From contig DAOTXC010000120.1 in the NCBI GenBank assembly GCA_034435555.1, forward strand, positions 3,132-67,131: a stretch of DNA of 64,000 bases, in the 5' to 3' direction. This DNA comes from Anaerolineae bacterium. Lineage in GTDB: Bacteria; Chloroflexota; Anaerolineae; B4-G1; SLSP01. The position numbers and the translations under genes were made by a program. Shown here one piece after another: positions 2,166 to 57,061 of the stretch (the first letter of the stretch is position 1; each line of letters opens with the position of its first letter). The notes beneath the pieces are model-generated. The model saw only the letters and a program-made list of their open reading frames with translations. It had not been told where the DNA came from and did not search any database.

Positions 2166-5100
2166 CTATCTCATAACCTCGAGGCGCTCACCAGCAGGCG
2201 AGGTTTCGCCCAACAGCACCACGATGGTACGATTTTGTGTTGAATCGTGAAAACGATACGCCCGCACCACGTCGCCATCCGTGTACAATTGCGCCAACAT
2301 CTCTTGCACCACCGCAGTATCCTCCAAAGGCACATCGCTGTCCAGCAGCGCCCCGCGCGGATCGTATCCCTGGACGACTTCGAAGCCTTGTTGGCCCAAG
2401 GCGCGGGTGATGAGCTCCATCGCAGAATGTTGCTCCAGGGAAGCAATCAGAGGCAGGCGCTGCGGCGCGCGCGCCAGCAACGCGGCTATTGCTGTCAACA
2501 GGTGTTCAGTATCCACAGGTTTGGTCAAGTAGGCATCGGCCCCCAGCGAAAGCCCCAGAGGACGATCTTCGATGATGGAGAGTACCAGGATGGGGATATT
2601 GGCGGTGAGCGTGTCGGACTTCAGAACTCGCAATACGTCAAAGCCCGAAAGGTCGGGCATCATAATATCGAGCAGGATCAACGCCGGGCGATGCGAGCGC
2701 GCCATCATCAGGGCTTCGGCGCCGGTGGACGCCGTGATGATTTGATAACCAACCTGCGAAAGCTCCTGCGCCAGCAGCGAACGGATGGAGGCTTCGTCAT
2801 CCACGATCAACACGAGCGGCAACACCTCCTCCAGAGGCGGCAGCGGGCCAGTGAGGCCGCGCGGGCGCGCCTCCACCGCAATTGAGGGAGCTTCCTCCAC
2901 GATGCGCATCGCCGGCTCTATCGGCAGCGTGAAATTGAAGCGCGAGCCTTCCCCTAGCACCGAATCCACCCAAATCGCACCCTTGTAATGCGCGACGATC
3001 TCCTGACAGATTGCCAATCCCAATCCTGTGCCCTTGGGCTTCTCGGTCAAGGTATCGGTGGCGAGCTGTTGGAAGCGCCGGAAAATGCGGAGCCGATCCT
3101 GCTCCACAATGCCGCTGCCGGTATCGGCCACCGTCACCAAAACCCCACCACGCGCCGGGGTTTGCCACCCGTGGAGCTCCTCGCCTGGTGCGAGCAAGCG
3201 GATGGAGACACGCACCTGCCCCTCCGCCGTAAATTTGATCGCATTGGACAAGAGGTTATCAAGCACCTGCCGGATGCGCACCGGGTCGGCCACAATGGGC
3301 GGCAGAGGCGCTGCTGGCGGATCAAAGAGCAGGGTGAGGCCCTTCTGCTGCGCCTGAACGCGCCGACGTTCGAGCGCCCGCTCGATGAGCACCGGCAATT
3401 CAAAGGGGTGATCCTGCCATTCGATCTTGCCCGCCTCCATCTTGGCGATATCGAGCACATCGTTGATCAGATCGGTGAGACGCTCGCCCTCGGTGAGGAT
3501 GATCGCCAGGTTGTCGTAGATGCGACGCGCGGCGCGCTGGACGTTGTGCTCACCGTCGGAGAGGGCGGGGAAGACATCGCGCTCGAAGGTGCGATGGATC
3601 AGCTTGGCGAACCCCAGCACCGAGGTCAATGGGGTCCGCAACTCGTGCGAGACGGTTGAGATGAACTCGGTCTTCATCCAGTCAATCTCTTTTTCGTAGG
3701 TGACGTCGCGCAGGATTGTGACCACGCCAATCAGCCGGTCGCGATCAACGATAGCCGCCGAGGAGGCTTTGAAGATGCAGTCCTTGGAGAAAGGAATCTC
3801 AGCCATAAAAGTCGAATCCGGCACGTCGAGCGTGTTGTGGATGAGTTCGCGGAGCTCCGACCTGGCGACGATGGCGCTCAGGGGTTGTCCGATCAACGTA
3901 CTGGCCGACCGCTCGAACATGCTCTCAAAGGCGGGGTTGACCAACAAAATATGATCCTGCGGATCGGTCACAATCAGGCCATCGGCGATATTGAAGAGGA
4001 TAGCGTCGAGCTTGCTCTTGTCCTCGGCGATACTGTGCGCCATCAATGCGAGCTCGTCGGCCCGCCGTTGCGCCGTGCGATAGAGGCGGGCGTTATGCAG
4101 CGCGGCAGCGATGTAGGCCCCAAAGGTCTCCGCACCTTTGACGTCAACGGAGGTGTAGAAATTCGGCTCGTGCTTATCGAGTGTAAGCAGGCCGATGCTC
4201 TGTCCCTGAACGACCAGCGGAACGCCGATCCAGGCCCGAATCTTGCCCGCCCCTTCGACATCGTCCCGCTTGCTGCCCCAGATTGGCTCGCGCTGCACAT
4301 CCGCGACCATCCGCACCTTGCCGGAGCGCATCACCTGGTAGCCTAAATTTTTCTCATTGGGCGAGAAGCTCTTGCCCACCACAGCCTCCGGATCGCGGAA
4401 GCCACGGGCCGCCACAATAGTGATGGTTTCGCTATCTTCGGTGAGCATGATGGAGGCGCTGTCGTATTCGATAATCTCAGCGATTTGCGCGAGCGCCAAA
4501 TCGAAGACCTCATCCAAATCGAGGGTAGAGACGAGCAGTTGCGCCAACCGCGCCAGGCTGGTGACCTGGAGCCGCTGCTCCTCGGCCTCGCGGTAGAGCT
4601 GCGCGTTGTGGATGGCGATGGCCGCCTGAGTCGCAACCGCGGAGAGAATTCGCACATCGCGCTCGGTGAAGGCATCGAGCTGTTGCGCCTCCACGTTGAA
4701 GACGCCGATCAACTTCCCGCTGGCGACCATAGGAACGGCTAGATCGGAACAGGTCGTATCATCAACGGGGATGTAGCCCTCGCACGCCTGCACATTCGGC
4801 ACCGATGACGGTTCACCCGTCGCTGCGACACGCCCGATGATCCCCTCCCCCACTTGCAGGCGCGTCTCTATGGAGACAGAATCGATGTATGCGGCGCGCG
4901 CGGCGATATAGAGATCGCCACGCTCAGGGTCAAGCAGGAAGATGACAGAGTTGCGATAGCCAAAGGTCTCCTCCACGTTCCGAATCAGCCCCTGGAGCAG
5001 CTGGTCGACATCCAGAATCGAGCCGAGGGTGCTGGAGACGTGCTGCAAGGCCACTAATTCGCGGCGCTCCCGCTCTAGCTGGCTTTGTTCCGCGGCGATT

Positions 5101-15820: not shown

Positions 15821-16108
15821 GTGCTTACTCCCTCAGAAAATAGCCACCAAGAACACAGAGTTCACAGAGAAAAAGAAAAACTCAGCGTGCTCTATGATCT
15901 CTATGGCTTAAATTTTAATCCTCGTTTTCACAACTCTCTCTAGCCCTATTGTAGACCCAAAGCACAATCTCGCCAAGGTGTCAGCTCTCCTCCAAGCCGT
16001 TACAAAATGACACAAAAATCGCCTTGCCTATCGCCCCATAATGTGGTATCTTTAGCCCCACGAGGCGCACGGTGTGCCTCCGATCACCTCAGGTCAAGGA
16101 GTTTGATT

Positions 16109-21023: not shown

Positions 21024-21192
21024 CCTCCACCTCCTCTCTCAAATCAGCAAATCAAAAAATCAGCGAAATAGCAACACTCTTTATTATACGCGCCCCGCCG
21101 CCAGAGTGCAAATCACCGAGAGAAGAAAGAGGTGAAGCGGCTCATCCGCGCATCGGGTCAGCCGCTATATTGTTCAAACGTGCAAATCCCTA

Positions 21193-21483: not shown

Positions 21484-21658
21484 GATCTCGTTCCGCTAGG
21501 GATAGCGGCAAGTCACAAGGGATATTTCGCGTCTGGCGTGCAACTTTCACGCTGTAATTCCGTAATACACTTACAGAGAATGTGACTCATTCGCGCCACG
21601 TGCGCTACGTAAGTGATTTTTGGATTTGCTGATTTGCAGATTTTTACGGAGGTGTATG

Positions 21659-28576: not shown

Positions 28577-28611
28577 CCTTGAAAATCTGAAAATCAGCAA
28601 ATCTAAAAATC
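28577..28611 (-). promoter_or_regulatory. Leader element: four tandem 8-nt GATTTNNN repeats abutting the SD of the CN-hydrolase gene
   Basis: mRNA sense: GATTTTTA GATTTGCT GATTTTCA GATTTTCA AGGAG ATAAAACT AUG. A near-identical element lies at 21614-21646. Confidence 0.5.
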
Positions 28612-28663
28612 GCCAGAATGTGCTTCTATTTAGGTTGGCTACGCTCTAAAACAGGCTACAGAT

Positions 28664-32764: not shown

Positions 32765-33184
32765 ATGAAAGTATTGGCCTTCAATGCTGATCTTTGCACG
32801 GGCGCGCGCGAGTGCGAGGCCGCCTGCGCTCAGACATGGTTCAAGGTGCAAGACGCCGCCAAATCCAGCATCCGCATCAGCACGAAAGATAACGGCTTCA
32901 GCGCCGCGTTCTGCATTCAGTGCGGCAAGTGCATCGAGGTTTGCCCCACCGAGGCGCTTTACTACAACAAGCAGGGTGTCGTCCTGCTGAAGAAAGACCT
33001 GTGCGTGGGCTGTATGTCGTGTGTGGGCTTCTGCCCCTACGACGTGATGTACTTCGCGCCGGAAGAGGCCATCGCCTTCAAGTGCGTCGCCTGCGGGCAG
33101 TGCGTCAAAGCGTGCCCAAATGACGCGCTGAAGATCGTGGAGGTCGAAGAGGCTTCTACAGATGTGTGGAATTTGCGATTTTAG
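32765..33184 (+). CDS. Poly-ferredoxin (three or four 4Fe-4S cluster motifs), probable electron partner of AOR
   Basis: CIQCGKCIEVCP. CVGCMSCVGFCP. CVACGQCVKACP cluster motifs. 139 aa. Confidence 0.8.
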   Translation: MKVLAFNADLCTGARECEAACAQTWFKVQDAAKSSIRISTKDNGFSAAFCIQCGKCIEVCPTEALYYNKQGVVLLKKDLCVGCMSCVGFCPYDVMYFAPEEAIAFKCVACGQCVKACPNDALKIVEVEEASTDVWNLRF

Positions 33185-33236
33185 ATTTGGGAGATTTCAC
33201 CGCAAAGACGCAAAGATTTCAGAGAGGGCTTGACGA

Positions 33237-33557
33237 TTGGAACACATAACAATTCTGAAACAAATTCAGCAGCAGACCATTACCGAACAGCTGCGCCTTA
33301 CACAACACGCCCAACAGGAAATGGTCGAAGAGGACATTGTCTTGGATGATGTCCTTGAAGCAATCGCCACAGGCCAAATTCTGGAATACTATCCGGAGTA
33401 TCGGCGCGGAGCCTGTTGCCTATTAGGCGGTTATACATATACGGGGCGTGCGCTACACATCGTATGTACCACAGCAAATCCAATCTTGATTATTATCACC
33501 GTTTATGTTCCCTTACCGCCTAAGTGGGTCACACCAACACAGAGGAGCGAGACATGA
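33237..33557 (+). CDS. DUF4258-family protein (toxin-like component)
   Basis: Small protein with a C-terminal hydrophobic beta-rich block typical of DUF4258. TTG start preceded by AGAGAGGG. Overlaps the next gene by 4 nt. Confidence 0.5.
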   Translation: MEHITILKQIQQQTITEQLRLTQHAQQEMVEEDIVLDDVLEAIATGQILEYYPEYRRGACCLLGGYTYTGRALHIVCTTANPILIIITVYVPLPPKWVTPTQRSET

Positions 33558-33784
33558 ACATGAAATGTAGCTTTGAGGGTTGTCCTGGCGAGTATGAGCA
33601 CCAGGAAATCATCCATGCAGTAAGACACAGAGGAGAAATCGTGGTGATTGACCATGTGCCCGCCGAGGTTTGCTCCGTATGTGGCGATGTACTACTGCAC
33701 CCTGAAATTGTGCGTCAAATCGAAACGCTGCTGCAAGAAGAACAACCTGCTCCAAAGATGGCACCCTTGTATGAATATGCCTGA
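33554..33784 (+). CDS. YgiT-type (MqsA N-terminal-like) zinc-finger protein, antitoxin-like
   Basis: CSFEGCPGEY ... VIDHVPAEVCSVCGDVLL is the YgiT-type Zn-ribbon pattern (TIGR03831-like). Start set to MNMKC (33554), overlapping the DUF4258 stop. Confidence 0.55.
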   Translation: MNMKCSFEGCPGEYEHQEIIHAVRHRGEIVVIDHVPAEVCSVCGDVLLHPEIVRQIETLLQEEQPAPKMAPLYEYA

Positions 33785-33814
33785 TCAATCTAATTTGCTT
33801 TAGGGAGAAAATCT

Positions 33815-35956: not shown

Positions 35957-35985
35957 GCATCTTAATGTTTTTAGCCACAAATTTG

Positions 35986-36037
35986 CACGAATTTGACGAA
36001 TTTTTTGAAAATATGTGAGAATTCGTGGAATTCGTGG
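35986..36037. promoter_or_regulatory. Operator-like 2x2 repeat site: two direct ACGAATTT units and two direct AATTCGTGG units in inverted orientation
   Basis: CACGAATTTGACGAATTTTTTG ... GAGAATTCGTGGAATTCGTGG. Lies between the AOR stop and the MoaD-like gene. Confidence 0.4.
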
Positions 36038-36049
36038 CAAAGTAAAACA

Positions 36050-37498: not shown

Positions 37499-37612
37499 AC
37501 TCTAGCACACAAATCGTAAAAAGACAATTTATAAAAGAAGTTGAAAAATTAAATCGCGCATTTCCCATTTGGATATTTAGAAGTACAATTGTGTAGTTAC
37601 TTCTAATCTGTG

Positions 37613-37630
37613 AAATCCGTGTCAATCCGT
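37613..37630 (+). promoter_or_regulatory. Direct repeat AATCCGTG x2 (10-bp period) 20 nt upstream of the pyrG SD
   Basis: GAAATCCGTGTCAATCCGTGAGCC read directly. Function unknown. Confidence 0.25.
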
Positions 37631-37653
37631 GAGCCGTTTTGGAAGGAGCGCAC

Positions 37654-54998: not shown

Positions 54999-56156
54999 AT
55001 GGCTGAGAAACTATTAACGTTAGGTGTGATTGGTACATCAAGCAAGGAAAATGAGCATCGGCTGCCCATCCATCCAGAGCATCTACCCAGAATCGAACCC
55101 CATCTAAGCCCGCAGATTTTCGTGGAAACGGGCTATGGAAACCGTTTCGGCGCAGACGAGGACTATTTGCGCGCCCACACCGGCGGCATCCGCTCGCGCG
55201 AGGCGCTCTTCGAGCAGTGCGATATCATCCTGCTGCCCAAACCTACCCCAGAGGACTTTCCCTACTTCCGCGAGGGGCAAATCCTGTGGGGCTGGCCGCA
55301 CTGCGTGCAGGGCAAGGCCATCACCCAACTGGGCATTGACAAGCGGCTCACGATGATCGCCTGGGAAGCGATGTACGTCTGGCGGAGCGAGCAGACCCCC
55401 GGAATGCACACCTTCTACAAGAACAACGAGCTGGCGGGCTACGGCAGCACCCTCCACGCCCTCCAGTTGCAGGGCATCACCGGGCATTACGGCCCCCACA
55501 AGCGCGCCGCTGTGATCAGCTTCGGCTCCACCGGACGCGGGGCGGTCTATGCCCTGCGCGGAATGGGCTACACCGACATCACCATCTACACGCAGCGCCC
55601 CTCGCACGCGGTACACAACCAGATCCCGGCGTTGGGCTATCGCCGCTACAAGCGCGCTACCCCTAATGGCGCGGATGTGGTCGCCGGGCGGCGCGGCACA
55701 AGAACGATGGCCGAGGAGCTGGGCAAATACGACATCATCGTCAACTGTGTGCTGCAGGATACCGACCGCCCGCTGATGTTCATCCGCAACGCCGAACTCG
55801 ACCACCTGCGGCCCGGCACGCTTATCATTGACGTGAGCTGCGACCACGGCATGGGCTTCGAGTTCGCTCGCCCCACCTCCTTCGAGTCGCCCACCTTCGA
55901 GGTCGGCGACCGTGTGTGCTACTACGCGGTTGATCACTCGCCCTCCTACCTGTGGAACGCTGCCACCGACGTCATCAGCGAGTCGGTGCTGCCCTACCTG
56001 CCCACCGTGATGGGCGGCCCTGACGCCTGGGCGCAAAACCGCACCATCCGTAAAGCCATCGAAATCCGCGAGGGCGTGACCCAAAACCCCAAGATTCTGC
56101 ACTTCCAGAAGCGCGCGGAGACCTACCCCCATCCCATCCGCAACGACGCCAAGTGA
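54999..56156 (+). CDS. Alanine-dehydrogenase/PNT-family NAD(P) dehydrogenase (N5-carboxyethyl-ornithine synthase / saccharopine dehydrogenase-like)
   Basis: N-terminal LGVIGTSSKENEHRLPIHPEH AlaDH/PNT N-domain pattern. Rossmann segment VISFGSTGRG. 385 aa. Substrate not assignable. Confidence 0.65.
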   Translation: MAEKLLTLGVIGTSSKENEHRLPIHPEHLPRIEPHLSPQIFVETGYGNRFGADEDYLRAHTGGIRSREALFEQCDIILLPKPTPEDFPYFREGQILWGWPHCVQGKAITQLGIDKRLTMIAWEAMYVWRSEQTPGMHTFYKNNELAGYGSTLHALQLQGITGHYGPHKRAAVISFGSTGRGAVYALRGMGYTDITIYTQRPSHAVHNQIPALGYRRYKRATPNGADVVAGRRGTRTMAEELGKYDIIVNCVLQDTDRPLMFIRNAELDHLRPGTLIIDVSCDHGMGFEFARPTSFESPTFEVGDRVCYYAVDHSPSYLWNAATDVISESVLPYLPTVMGGPDAWAQNRTIRKAIEIREGVTQNPKILHFQKRAETYPHPIRNDAK

Positions 56157-56479
56157 GATCGCTACACATCATAGGACTTACGCCATCACGCGGCCTCAAC
56201 ATCTTCAACCGCAGAGCGCGCAAAGGACGCAGAGTTTTTTGTTAAAAACCCGCCGACGTTGCTCAAAAAGACGGTTTTTGTTGTGCCAAGATGTTGAGAA
56301 AGTACTTTATAAAAATTCTCTTTGCGCTCTCTGCGTACTCTGCGGTTAGGTTCTCGATACTTGCGTAAGTCCTGATCAGAAAAGCCAGGGTTGGAACAGA
56401 TTCCTGCTTGTTCATGGAACAAATATGCCGGTTCCTACGTCTTTAAGATGTAGGCAAAACAGGAAAACAGAAGGAGGAT

Positions 56480-57061
56480 GTGGAAATGAAAACCCAACTG
56501 GTCAGCCTGATATTGGCAGTGTTGGTCATCGTAGTGGCCGGCTGTGCTAGAACGGATAATAGCACCGAGGTGGGGCTACCCAATCCCGCATCGGTCTATT
56601 GCGAAGAGCAGGGCGGCAAGCTGGAGATCCGCGAGGGCGAAGACGGCCAATACGGCATCTGCGTCTTCGACGACGGCAGCGAATGTGAGGAATGGGCCTT
56701 CTACCGGGGCGAGTGCGCGCCGGGCGTGGGAACGCTCCCCACCAATGGCGAAGCAACGCTCGTTCATGTGGACGAACTGACCCTGAACATCATGGAGTCG
56801 TTCCCCGTACAGGTGAACGCGGTGGTTCGCGGCAATCTGGCTGACGGCTGCGTCATTCTCGACGGCATCGAAGCCACCCGCGAGGGCAACATCTTCACTC
56901 TGGAGATCAACGCCCGCAGCGAGGGCGAAATATGCACAATGGCGCTCGTTCCCTTCAAGGAGATCGTCAGCCTCGAGGTCGAGGGATTGCCCGCCGGCGT
57001 CTACACCGTCGTCATCGAGGATCTAAGCGCGACCTTCACCTTCGACGTGGATAACGGCTGA
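56480..57061 (+). CDS. DUF333-family lipoprotein (putative hemolysin-like domain) with extra C-terminal domain
   Basis: Lipobox VVAGC. NPASVYCEEQGGK...GICVFDDGSECEEWAFYRGEC DUF333 signature. GGAGG SD. Confidence 0.7.
   Translation: MEMKTQLVSLILAVLVIVVAGCARTDNSTEVGLPNPASVYCEEQGGKLEIREGEDGQYGICVFDDGSECEEWAFYRGECAPGVGTLPTNGEATLVHVDELTLNIMESFPVQVNAVVRGNLADGCVILDGIEATREGNIFTLEINARSEGEICTMALVPFKEIVSLEVEGLPAGVYTVVIEDLSATFTFDVDNG

Follow-up and report, generated by a model that had tools for sequence, protein, structure and literature searches.

The 64-kb window (the whole stretch of 64,000 nt of Anaerolineae DNA that was analysed) contains an intergenic element of about 200 bp, and the gene neighbours at this locus encode FtsH, an MFS transporter, an AlaDH-like protein, a DUF333 protein, an aldolase and an ABC transporter. 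Pfam matches (PF05222 and PF01262 upstream, PF03891 downstream) confirmed that the element lies, as the first-pass annotation had placed it, between an AlaDH/PNT-family gene and a DUF333 gene; the best named homologues of the former are N5-(carboxyethyl)ornithine synthases. The coordinates of the element and of its flanking genes are collected in Table 1.

Table 1. Features of the intergenic element and its flanking genes (window coordinates)
Feature	Position	Strand	Remarks
Upstream AlaDH/PNT-family gene, N5-(carboxyethyl)ornithine synthase-like	54999..56156	+	PF05222 + PF01262; stop codon 16 nt before IR1
IR1 left arm, AGGACTTACGC	56173..56183		Outer locus-specific palindrome around core
IR2 left arm, CTCAACATCTT	56195..56205		Directly outside R arm; locus-specific
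Purine-rich R arm: AAC cap + CGCAGAGcg, CGCAAAGga, CGCAGAG	56207..56234	+	Pattern match; arm common to at least 119 genome and at least 120 viral loci; found upstream of GxxExxY ORFs
AT-rich loop, 83 nt	56235..56317		No ORF and no similarity to GxxExxY
IR2 right arm, AAGATGTTGAG	56288..56298		Within loop; crosses IR3
Pyrimidine-rich Y arm: CT, CTTTGCG (56320), CTCTGCG (56329), CTCTGCG (56338), GTT cap	56318..56347	+	Inverted copy of R arm
IR1 right arm, GCGTAAGTCCT	56363..56373		Pairs with IR1 left arm
Downstream DUF333 gene	56480..57061	+	PF03891 (on the identical locus L204); start about 107 nt after IR1 right arm

Three inverted repeats had been annotated here, and all three are present. 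IR1 and IR2 are perfect, with 11 of 11 positions paired in each. IR3, in which positions 56209 to 56234 pair with 56318 to 56345, consists of two inverted arrays of three tandem 9-nt units each; on the right, the array reads CTCTTTGCGct-CTCTGCGta-CTCTGCG and is followed by GTT (56345 to 56347). The core of the element (56207 to 56347, 141 nt) can therefore be written as AAC-(CGCARAGnn)x3, an 83-nt loop and (nnCTYTGCG)x3-GTT. Along the strand, the order of the arms is IR2 left, IR3 left, IR2 right and IR3 right, so that IR2 crosses IR3, as had been claimed. The description of the core as AT-rich likewise holds for the loop, which has a GC content of 0.44 to 0.49 versus approximately 0.62 in the flanks.

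In dinucleotide-preserving shuffles of the 323-nt intergenic region (n = 2,000), a perfect inverted repeat of 11 nt or more occurred in 34 shuffles and two such repeats in none; for the triple-unit pattern of the arrays, shuffles of the whole window gave an expectation of zero matches. All three inverted repeats are real and non-random.

Folding and conservation at the locus

Both strands of the element fold far better than shuffled sequences (z scores of -4.3 and -4.0). The predicted stem is very stable (-71 kcal/mol), and the R arm pairs with the Y arm with a probability of 0.99 on either strand. At equilibrium, the pair probabilities of IR1 and IR3 exceed 0.95 and that of IR2 is close to zero; the conformer that contains IR2 lies 12.9 kcal/mol (+ strand) or 14.2 kcal/mol (- strand) above the minimum-energy fold.

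These values bear on the function proposed by the first-pass annotation, which had taken the crossing repeats as the signature of an antiterminator/terminator, a riboswitch-like switch or a pseudoknotted RNA. A switch or attenuator in which IR2 and IR3 form alternative RNA helices, and thereby control read-through into the DUF333 gene, would agree with the topology of the two repeats, which makes them mutually exclusive, with the location of both flanking genes on the + strand and with the excess of folding on both strands; however, the IR2 alternative is costly in energy. Furthermore, Rfam 15 returned no match to the element even at E values of up to 10, neither a terminator-like nor a promoter-like site was detected, and no U-run follows the stem. 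Nothing resembling an expression platform was recognized, since there is no terminator, the ribosome-binding site of the DUF333 gene lies about 100 nt beyond the element and the alternative fold is 13 to 14 kcal/mol worse. Judging from the coordinates, only one nucleotide (56206) would be available to bridge a 28-bp helix in a pseudoknot that contained both helices in full.

Comparison with other loci points in the same direction. Homologues of the upstream gene at 63 to 67% identity have other downstream neighbours, no such element and no conserved downstream synteny, and IR3 is a generic repeat that accompanies unrelated genes in phages and across many phyla, as described below. The closest relatives of the locus, L204 and L205, which stem from two further metagenomes, show 100% identity across the spacer (381 nt); therefore, they provide neither covariation, which could have supported an RNA switch, nor an empty site. 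The element lacks riboswitch features, and we regard a switch acting on the DUF333 gene as very improbable.

Two further observations concern the spacer. In the contig L120, which carries a homologue of the upstream gene with 67% identity, cacCGCAAGAcCGCCGAGAaCGCTGACAG is found directly after the AlaDH-like stop codon (4158 to 4200) and may represent a decayed arm at the matching relative position. In the window, the gap between the element and the DUF333 gene (56392 to 56458) contains small palindromes (TTGTTCatgGAACAA), a direct repeat (TGGAACAGAT/TGGAACAAAT) and, at 56445, a third partial copy of the IR2 word (AAGATGTAGGCAAA); they may represent the actual 5' leader of the DUF333 gene.

An interspersed palindrome family

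One genome per prokaryotic species was scanned with the pattern CGCARAGnnCGCARAGnnCGCARAG. At least 119 genome contigs match this triple-unit pattern, and we estimate that about two such matches would be expected by chance. They represent more than a dozen phyla, including archaea; among the matches listed are Chloroflexia, Verrucomicrobia, Planctomycetes, Acidobacteria, cyanobacteria (Microcoleus), NC10, Bacteroidota, Nitrospirae and several archaea. The pattern is also matched by at least 120 viral contigs of IMG/VR, some of which carry genuine phage genes.

The arm of this family is a short array built from units of 9 nt, or sometimes 8 nt, whose 7-mer consensus is C-R-C-N-R-A-G; variants of the unit at other loci include CACAGAG, CACGGAG, CGCGGAG, CACGAAG and CGCCGAG. 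From either end, the strand that reads inward is the purine-rich one, and the caps are NAC...GTN. Among the matches listed, the usual arm consists of a cap followed by three (sometimes two or four) purine-rich units, the cap being AAC, TAC or CAC in 73 of 134 arm occurrences, with AAC the commonest (43/134). A downstream partner arm, in the same purine-arm-first layout as in the window, accompanies 66 of these 134 occurrences, and the loops are 9 to 413 nt long (median, 54.5 nt); most GxxExxY cassettes, described below, have this layout as well. No partner arm accompanies another 57 of the 134; the hairpin is thus not obligatory. With its AAC cap (56207 to 56209), three units per arm (56210 to 56234 and 56320 to 56344), 83-nt loop and GTT end (56345 to 56347), the window copy is a typical member, and its core belongs to a very large interspersed palindrome family.

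What is shared within this family is confined to the arrays. Copies inside one genome are alike in their arrays only, not in loop, interior or flanks. A second copy of this particular element was not found elsewhere in the 64-kb window. The IR1 and IR2 words occur beside the arrays of 119 other loci at chance level only and are therefore locus specific. Related hairpins at 18 loci likewise matched no Rfam family.

The capped arms invite comparison with integron attC sites, in which AAC and GTT are near-invariant in the R'' and R' boxes and which lie at the 3' ends of promoterless, co-oriented cassettes near intI. The window copy ends in AAC...GTTAGGT, like the R''/R' boxes, and the distribution of the family among phyla resembles that of integrons; its length of 141 nt is at the top of the attC range. 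However, AAC caps are found in fewer than one-third of the arms (the 43 of 134 given above, among the matches listed), TAC, CAC and others being common, and the flanking genes in the window are housekeeping genes rather than a cassette array. In addition, the arms of the GxxExxY cassettes described below bracket the ORF instead of trailing it, and, to our knowledge, attC sites are not built from tandem nonamers. An attC-like recombination site is exceedingly unlikely.

The arms of 60 cassettes were compared with each other on the coding strand (1,856 columns). Of the 246 mismatches, 64 were of the G·U type and 64 of the A·C type, and 118 were transversions; since G·U is not in excess over A·C on the sense strand, there is no sign of selection for RNA pairing. 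The family flanks tend to carry a T-run upstream and an A-run downstream, an arrangement opposite to that of an intrinsic terminator, whichever strand is read. Of 44 solo members, 26 lie in tandem, 11 in convergent and 7 in divergent spacers. Because there is no G·U bias, the T/A flanks are reversed and all spacer classes are represented, we favour, from these sequence patterns, a constraint that acts on the arms at the DNA level, either as repeated protein sites or through recombination between arms, and not through a dedicated RNA function.

The same data bear on the idea that the element is an RNA hairpin that serves the host, whether by stabilizing mRNA 3' ends, by offering RNase III a site for processing or by terminating transcription with the help of a factor; such roles have been proposed for REP elements. 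The window element begins 16 nt past a stop codon and has the very stable stem noted above, the family is somewhat commoner at the 3' ends of genes (86 adjacent 3' ORF ends versus 54 5' ends), and single arms come after the ends of genes in the phage-like contig L232. Such a role would not, however, account for the equality of G·U and A·C mismatches on the sense strand, the frequent transversions, the reversed flanks or the presence of members in all intergenic classes, including divergent spacers (7/44). Furthermore, single arms have no consistent orientation relative to neighbouring genes. A host-serving RNA hairpin is therefore considered unlikely.

Several other array types were considered and dropped because of poor fit: CsrA sites, DnaA boxes, uptake signal sequences, arrays of Shine-Dalgarno-like motifs, and Rho rut sites, whose 9-nt spacing would agree but which do not suit arrays that cyanobacteria and archaea also carry.

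Individual loci show how varied the arrangement of the arms can be. The virus-like contig L232, also retrieved as L249 (IMGVR_UViG_3300024287_000138, 27.9 kb), carries at least 10 single arms (ttaacCGCAGAGaaCGCAGAGaaCGCAGAG) in one orientation, mostly a few nucleotides past the ends of + strand ORFs, with neither a partner arm nor a GxxExxY gene. Hairpins or arms are arranged head to tail with a period of about 130 to 180 nt in L036 (4450 to 4870) and also in L063 and L095; L036 additionally contains a group II intron domain (Rfam RF00029) at 61 to 138. In Microcoleus and other cyanobacteria (L003, L020, L037, L051, L078, L096, L098, L100, L116 and L117), the arms are mostly single, have the form tttttAAC(CGCAGAGgg)x3, run into a GA-rich tract and lack an inverted partner within 500 nt.

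The window itself carries further hairpins and arrays of similar build with variant units. A second hairpin (15845 to 15925) is formed by CACCAAGaaCACAGAGttCACAGAG, a loop and CTCTATGatCTCTATGG, and a third (35966 to 36045), located between a stop codon and the next gene, has arms of tandem units (CACAAATTTGCACGAATTTGACGAATT and GAATTCGTGGAATTCGTGG) on either side of its loop. At 33165 to 33226, a single arm (cacCGCAAAGaCGCAAAGatttCAGAG) follows GATTT-type repeats and lies upstream of a small two-gene cassette (33310 to 33790), which may encode a DUF4258/BrnT-like toxin and a zinc-ribbon antitoxin; no partner arm was found downstream of it. Finally, arrays of 8- to 9-nt units stand directly before ribosome-binding sites and start codons at 21040 to 21074, 21623 to 21650, 28578 to 28612 and 37606 to 37631, their units being CAAATCAG, GATTTGC[TA], TGAAAATC and ATCCGTG. 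Those at 21040 and 21623 form an inverted pair around approximately 550 nt, and the gene behind one of the four arrays is presumably that of a CTP synthase.

Association with GxxExxY genes

At two genome loci (L111 and L035), an ORF of about 130 codons lies between the arms and encodes a GxxExxY protein. The NCBIfam model TIGR04256 matched the ORF of L111 with an E value of 1.7e-43 and that of a third cassette, L080, with an E value of 9.6e-39. Among 150 small ORFs that adjoin arrays, PDDEXK_3 (PF13366) was the only recurring Pfam family.

The association was examined in the reverse direction by starting from the genes. An alignment of GxxExxY proteins yielded 591 relatives on metagenome contigs, of which 80 loci were kept; 70 of these had both flanks and were compared with 66 controls. 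Periodic 7-mers with a spacing of 8 to 10 nt were present on both sides at 58 of the 70 GxxExxY loci versus 11 of the 66 controls, and three or more periodic units on one flank at 63/70 versus 4/66. Scores of 14 or more for an ungapped inverted repeat between the flanks were reached by 41 of the 70 loci and by none of the 66 controls, whose maximum was 10. The purine arm lies upstream of the gene at 49 of 69 loci, the reverse layout being rare, and the commonest layout has three units per arm. At loci that possess both arms, the median distance from the end of the R arm to the start codon is 16 nt, and that from the stop codon to the Y arm is 8 nt. GxxExxY genes, of about 125 codons (TIGR04256/PF13366), are thus associated with inverted nonamer arrays that bracket them closely.

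Seen from the arrays, the association is less frequent. Among the matches listed, a GxxExxY gene is present at 6 of 119 genome array loci, and none was found in 1.04 Mb of viral array loci. ORFs that start just past an R arm are no more frequent than in controls. Searches of the 64-kb window with phmmer and with an HMM returned no GxxExxY ORF, and the 83-nt loop of the window copy has none between its arms.

The GxxExxY family is large: at least 7,979 proteins were retrieved at E values of up to 1e-10, all of which carry PF13366. The AlphaFold model (pLDDT, 93) has a minimal PD-(D/E)XK core with invariant D73, E83 and K85 and the GxxExxY motif; the solved folds nearest to it, those of Cas4, lambda exonuclease and the AddB nuclease, are all weakly similar, and a phmmer search against PDB sequences with the GxxExxY protein gave no match. 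As modelled, the protein is a minimal PD-(D/E)XK nuclease that keeps the D-E-K catalytic residues. Multiple transfers have been reported for this protein family (PMC3424549). The literature that we searched contained no biochemical data on any GxxExxY protein and, for the terms GxxExxY, PF13366, TIGR04256 and IPR026350, no mention of flanking repeats; the array sequences themselves retrieved only coincidental primers. Within the incomplete coverage of these searches, no description of a link between the arrays and GxxExxY was found in Rfam or in the searchable literature.

The strength of this association also bears on the view that the arrays are protein-binding DNA, such as an operator or the site of a nucleoid protein, that regulates the neighbouring genes and has no relation to GxxExxY. 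Repeated 7-mers at a fixed 9-nt spacing would be expected of such sites, and the arrays directly before ribosome-binding sites in the window (21040, 21623, 28578 and 37606) would be suitably placed. However, the 7-mers occur beside unrelated genes in more than 12 phyla, including archaea, and in phages, which is a poor fit to a dedicated regulator, and the link to GxxExxY genes would be left aside. An array that serves neighbouring genes in this way is, in our judgement, decidedly unlikely.

Origin of the window copy and comparison with known systems

We consider that the window core is probably a gene-less, non-autonomous or decayed derivative of a selfish GxxExxY nuclease cassette. The full-length form would be one in which two inverted nonamer arrays tightly bracket the GxxExxY gene, and the window copy would be the solo form, related to the cassette as a REPIN is to its RAYT or a MITE to its IS. 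It can be envisaged that the likeness of the arms is maintained at the DNA level, because they serve as repeated nuclease sites or recombine with each other, and not for an RNA function. Since the spacer is tandem, transcription from the upstream gene would produce the very stable hairpin, which we would regard as a by-product. Three parts of this interpretation are inferred: recognition of the arrays by the nuclease, mobility of the elements, and the descent of solo copies from full ones or their dependence on them.

Several observations speak against the solo-cassette interpretation. The 64-kb window has neither a GxxExxY gene nor a second copy of the element, many arms have no partner, and neither a target-site duplication nor an empty site was found. 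In addition, most arrays are not located beside a GxxExxY gene; the arrays could thus be primary, with the nuclease genes homing in or another factor responsible for their spread. Causality could then be reversed, such that GxxExxY genes home into pre-existing hairpins.

A broader proposal, which is advanced only tentatively, is that GxxExxY proteins and inverted repeats of nonamer arrays together constitute an undescribed selfish or mobile class. The PD-(D/E)XK protein would recognize C-R-C-N-R-A-G arrays at both ends, and gene-less hairpins and single arms would be its non-autonomous progeny across bacteria, archaea and phages. On this view, the window element would belong to that progeny, and its crossing IR2 would be a footprint of rearrangement by the system.

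The first-pass annotation had offered a MITE-like mobile element as its alternative, and part of this suggestion holds: the core is a member of an interspersed palindrome family that is tied to a nuclease gene. As in MITEs, there are terminal inverted repeats around a short, AT-rich, non-coding interior, and the copies lie between genes and are multiple within genomes. A classical MITE, that is, a deletion derivative of an IS that is moved by the IS transposase and generates target-site duplications, is a different matter. In the window, neither the arms nor IR1 are bordered by a direct repeat, and across 278 arms the excess of flanking direct repeats was weak and inconsistent. Furthermore, copies in the same genome share their arrays and not their interiors, single arms are common, and no transposase family, of IS type or otherwise, recurs beside the arrays, the only recurrent neighbour being the 125-aa PD-(D/E)XK protein. 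We therefore consider a classical MITE improbable.

The closest analogue of the array-GxxExxY system would be the REPIN/RAYT system. As described for REPs, REPINs and RAYTs (PMC3116915, PMC3337134 and PMC3733652), the palindromes are short, intergenic and present in many copies, inverted copies of the repeat lie on both sides of an associated small nuclease or transposase gene, and copies that bear no gene are by far the more numerous. REPs are defined by a GTAG or CGTC tag at one end of a single palindrome of 20 to 40 bp (PMC3733652); in contrast, the arms described here are tandem 9-nt arrays, and that of the window element starts with AACCGCAGAG and has no GTAG or CGTC terminal tag. The enzymes also differ, in that RAYTs are HUH/Y1 proteins of the IS200/IS605 type, whereas the recurrent neighbour of the arrays is PF13366, with a PD-(D/E)XK fold. 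Lastly, REPIN-RAYT systems are mostly inherited vertically, whereas the unit sequences of the present family are common to different phyla, archaea and phages.

Two other systems share parts of this architecture. The ends of Mu, Tn7 and IS21 contain several direct repeats of a short motif, with the two ends mutually inverted, and the array arms are likewise short direct repeats that are inverted between the ends; unlike those elements, they consist of 7-nt units at 9-nt spacing, and the cargo is a single 125-aa nuclease or nothing. Intervening sequences of 23S rRNA hold a small ORF, which encodes a four-helix-bundle protein, or nothing within a long inverted-repeat stem. The cassettes resemble them in having a small ORF or nothing in a long stem but differ in the ORF family, which is GxxExxY. 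We rejected the window element as a 23S rRNA intervening sequence because it lies between protein-coding genes and conserved rRNA motifs were found in none of approximately 320 loci.

At the level of the locus, these results are deflationary, since the element is an interspersed repeat and not a gene-specific regulatory RNA. At the level of the family, they account for intergenic hairpins across many environmental phyla and some phages, and they offer a testable hypothesis for GxxExxY/PDDEXK_3, a very large family with no assigned function. If the link between nuclease and arrays is true, it would represent a REPIN/RAYT-like system built on a different enzyme fold and would be useful for annotation, for the masking of false structured-RNA candidates and for studies of how plastic the genomes of these lineages are.

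The solo-cassette interpretation does not account for IR1 and IR2, even though they are non-random. Outer inverted repeats around a hairpin were present in 6 of 48 family members, compared with 2.2% of shuffled controls; as outer palindromes thus recur in a minority of members, IR1 could be an older palindrome or a target. For IR2, one speculative source of the crossing is an inversion between the arms: flipping of the loop by recombination between them would turn the IR2 11-mer into a direct repeat that flanks the R arm. No general signal of the flanking direct repeats expected from such flipping was found in the array family.

Clear nested hairpins were seen at four loci, L030 (6100 to 6450), L077 (on the reverse strand), L080 (7100 to 7800) and L097 (1 to 170), where a hairpin is enclosed by the loop of another hairpin or by an outer palindrome unrelated to it. 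In L080, a GxxExxY gene occurs together with an inner CACAAAG hairpin and additional right arms.
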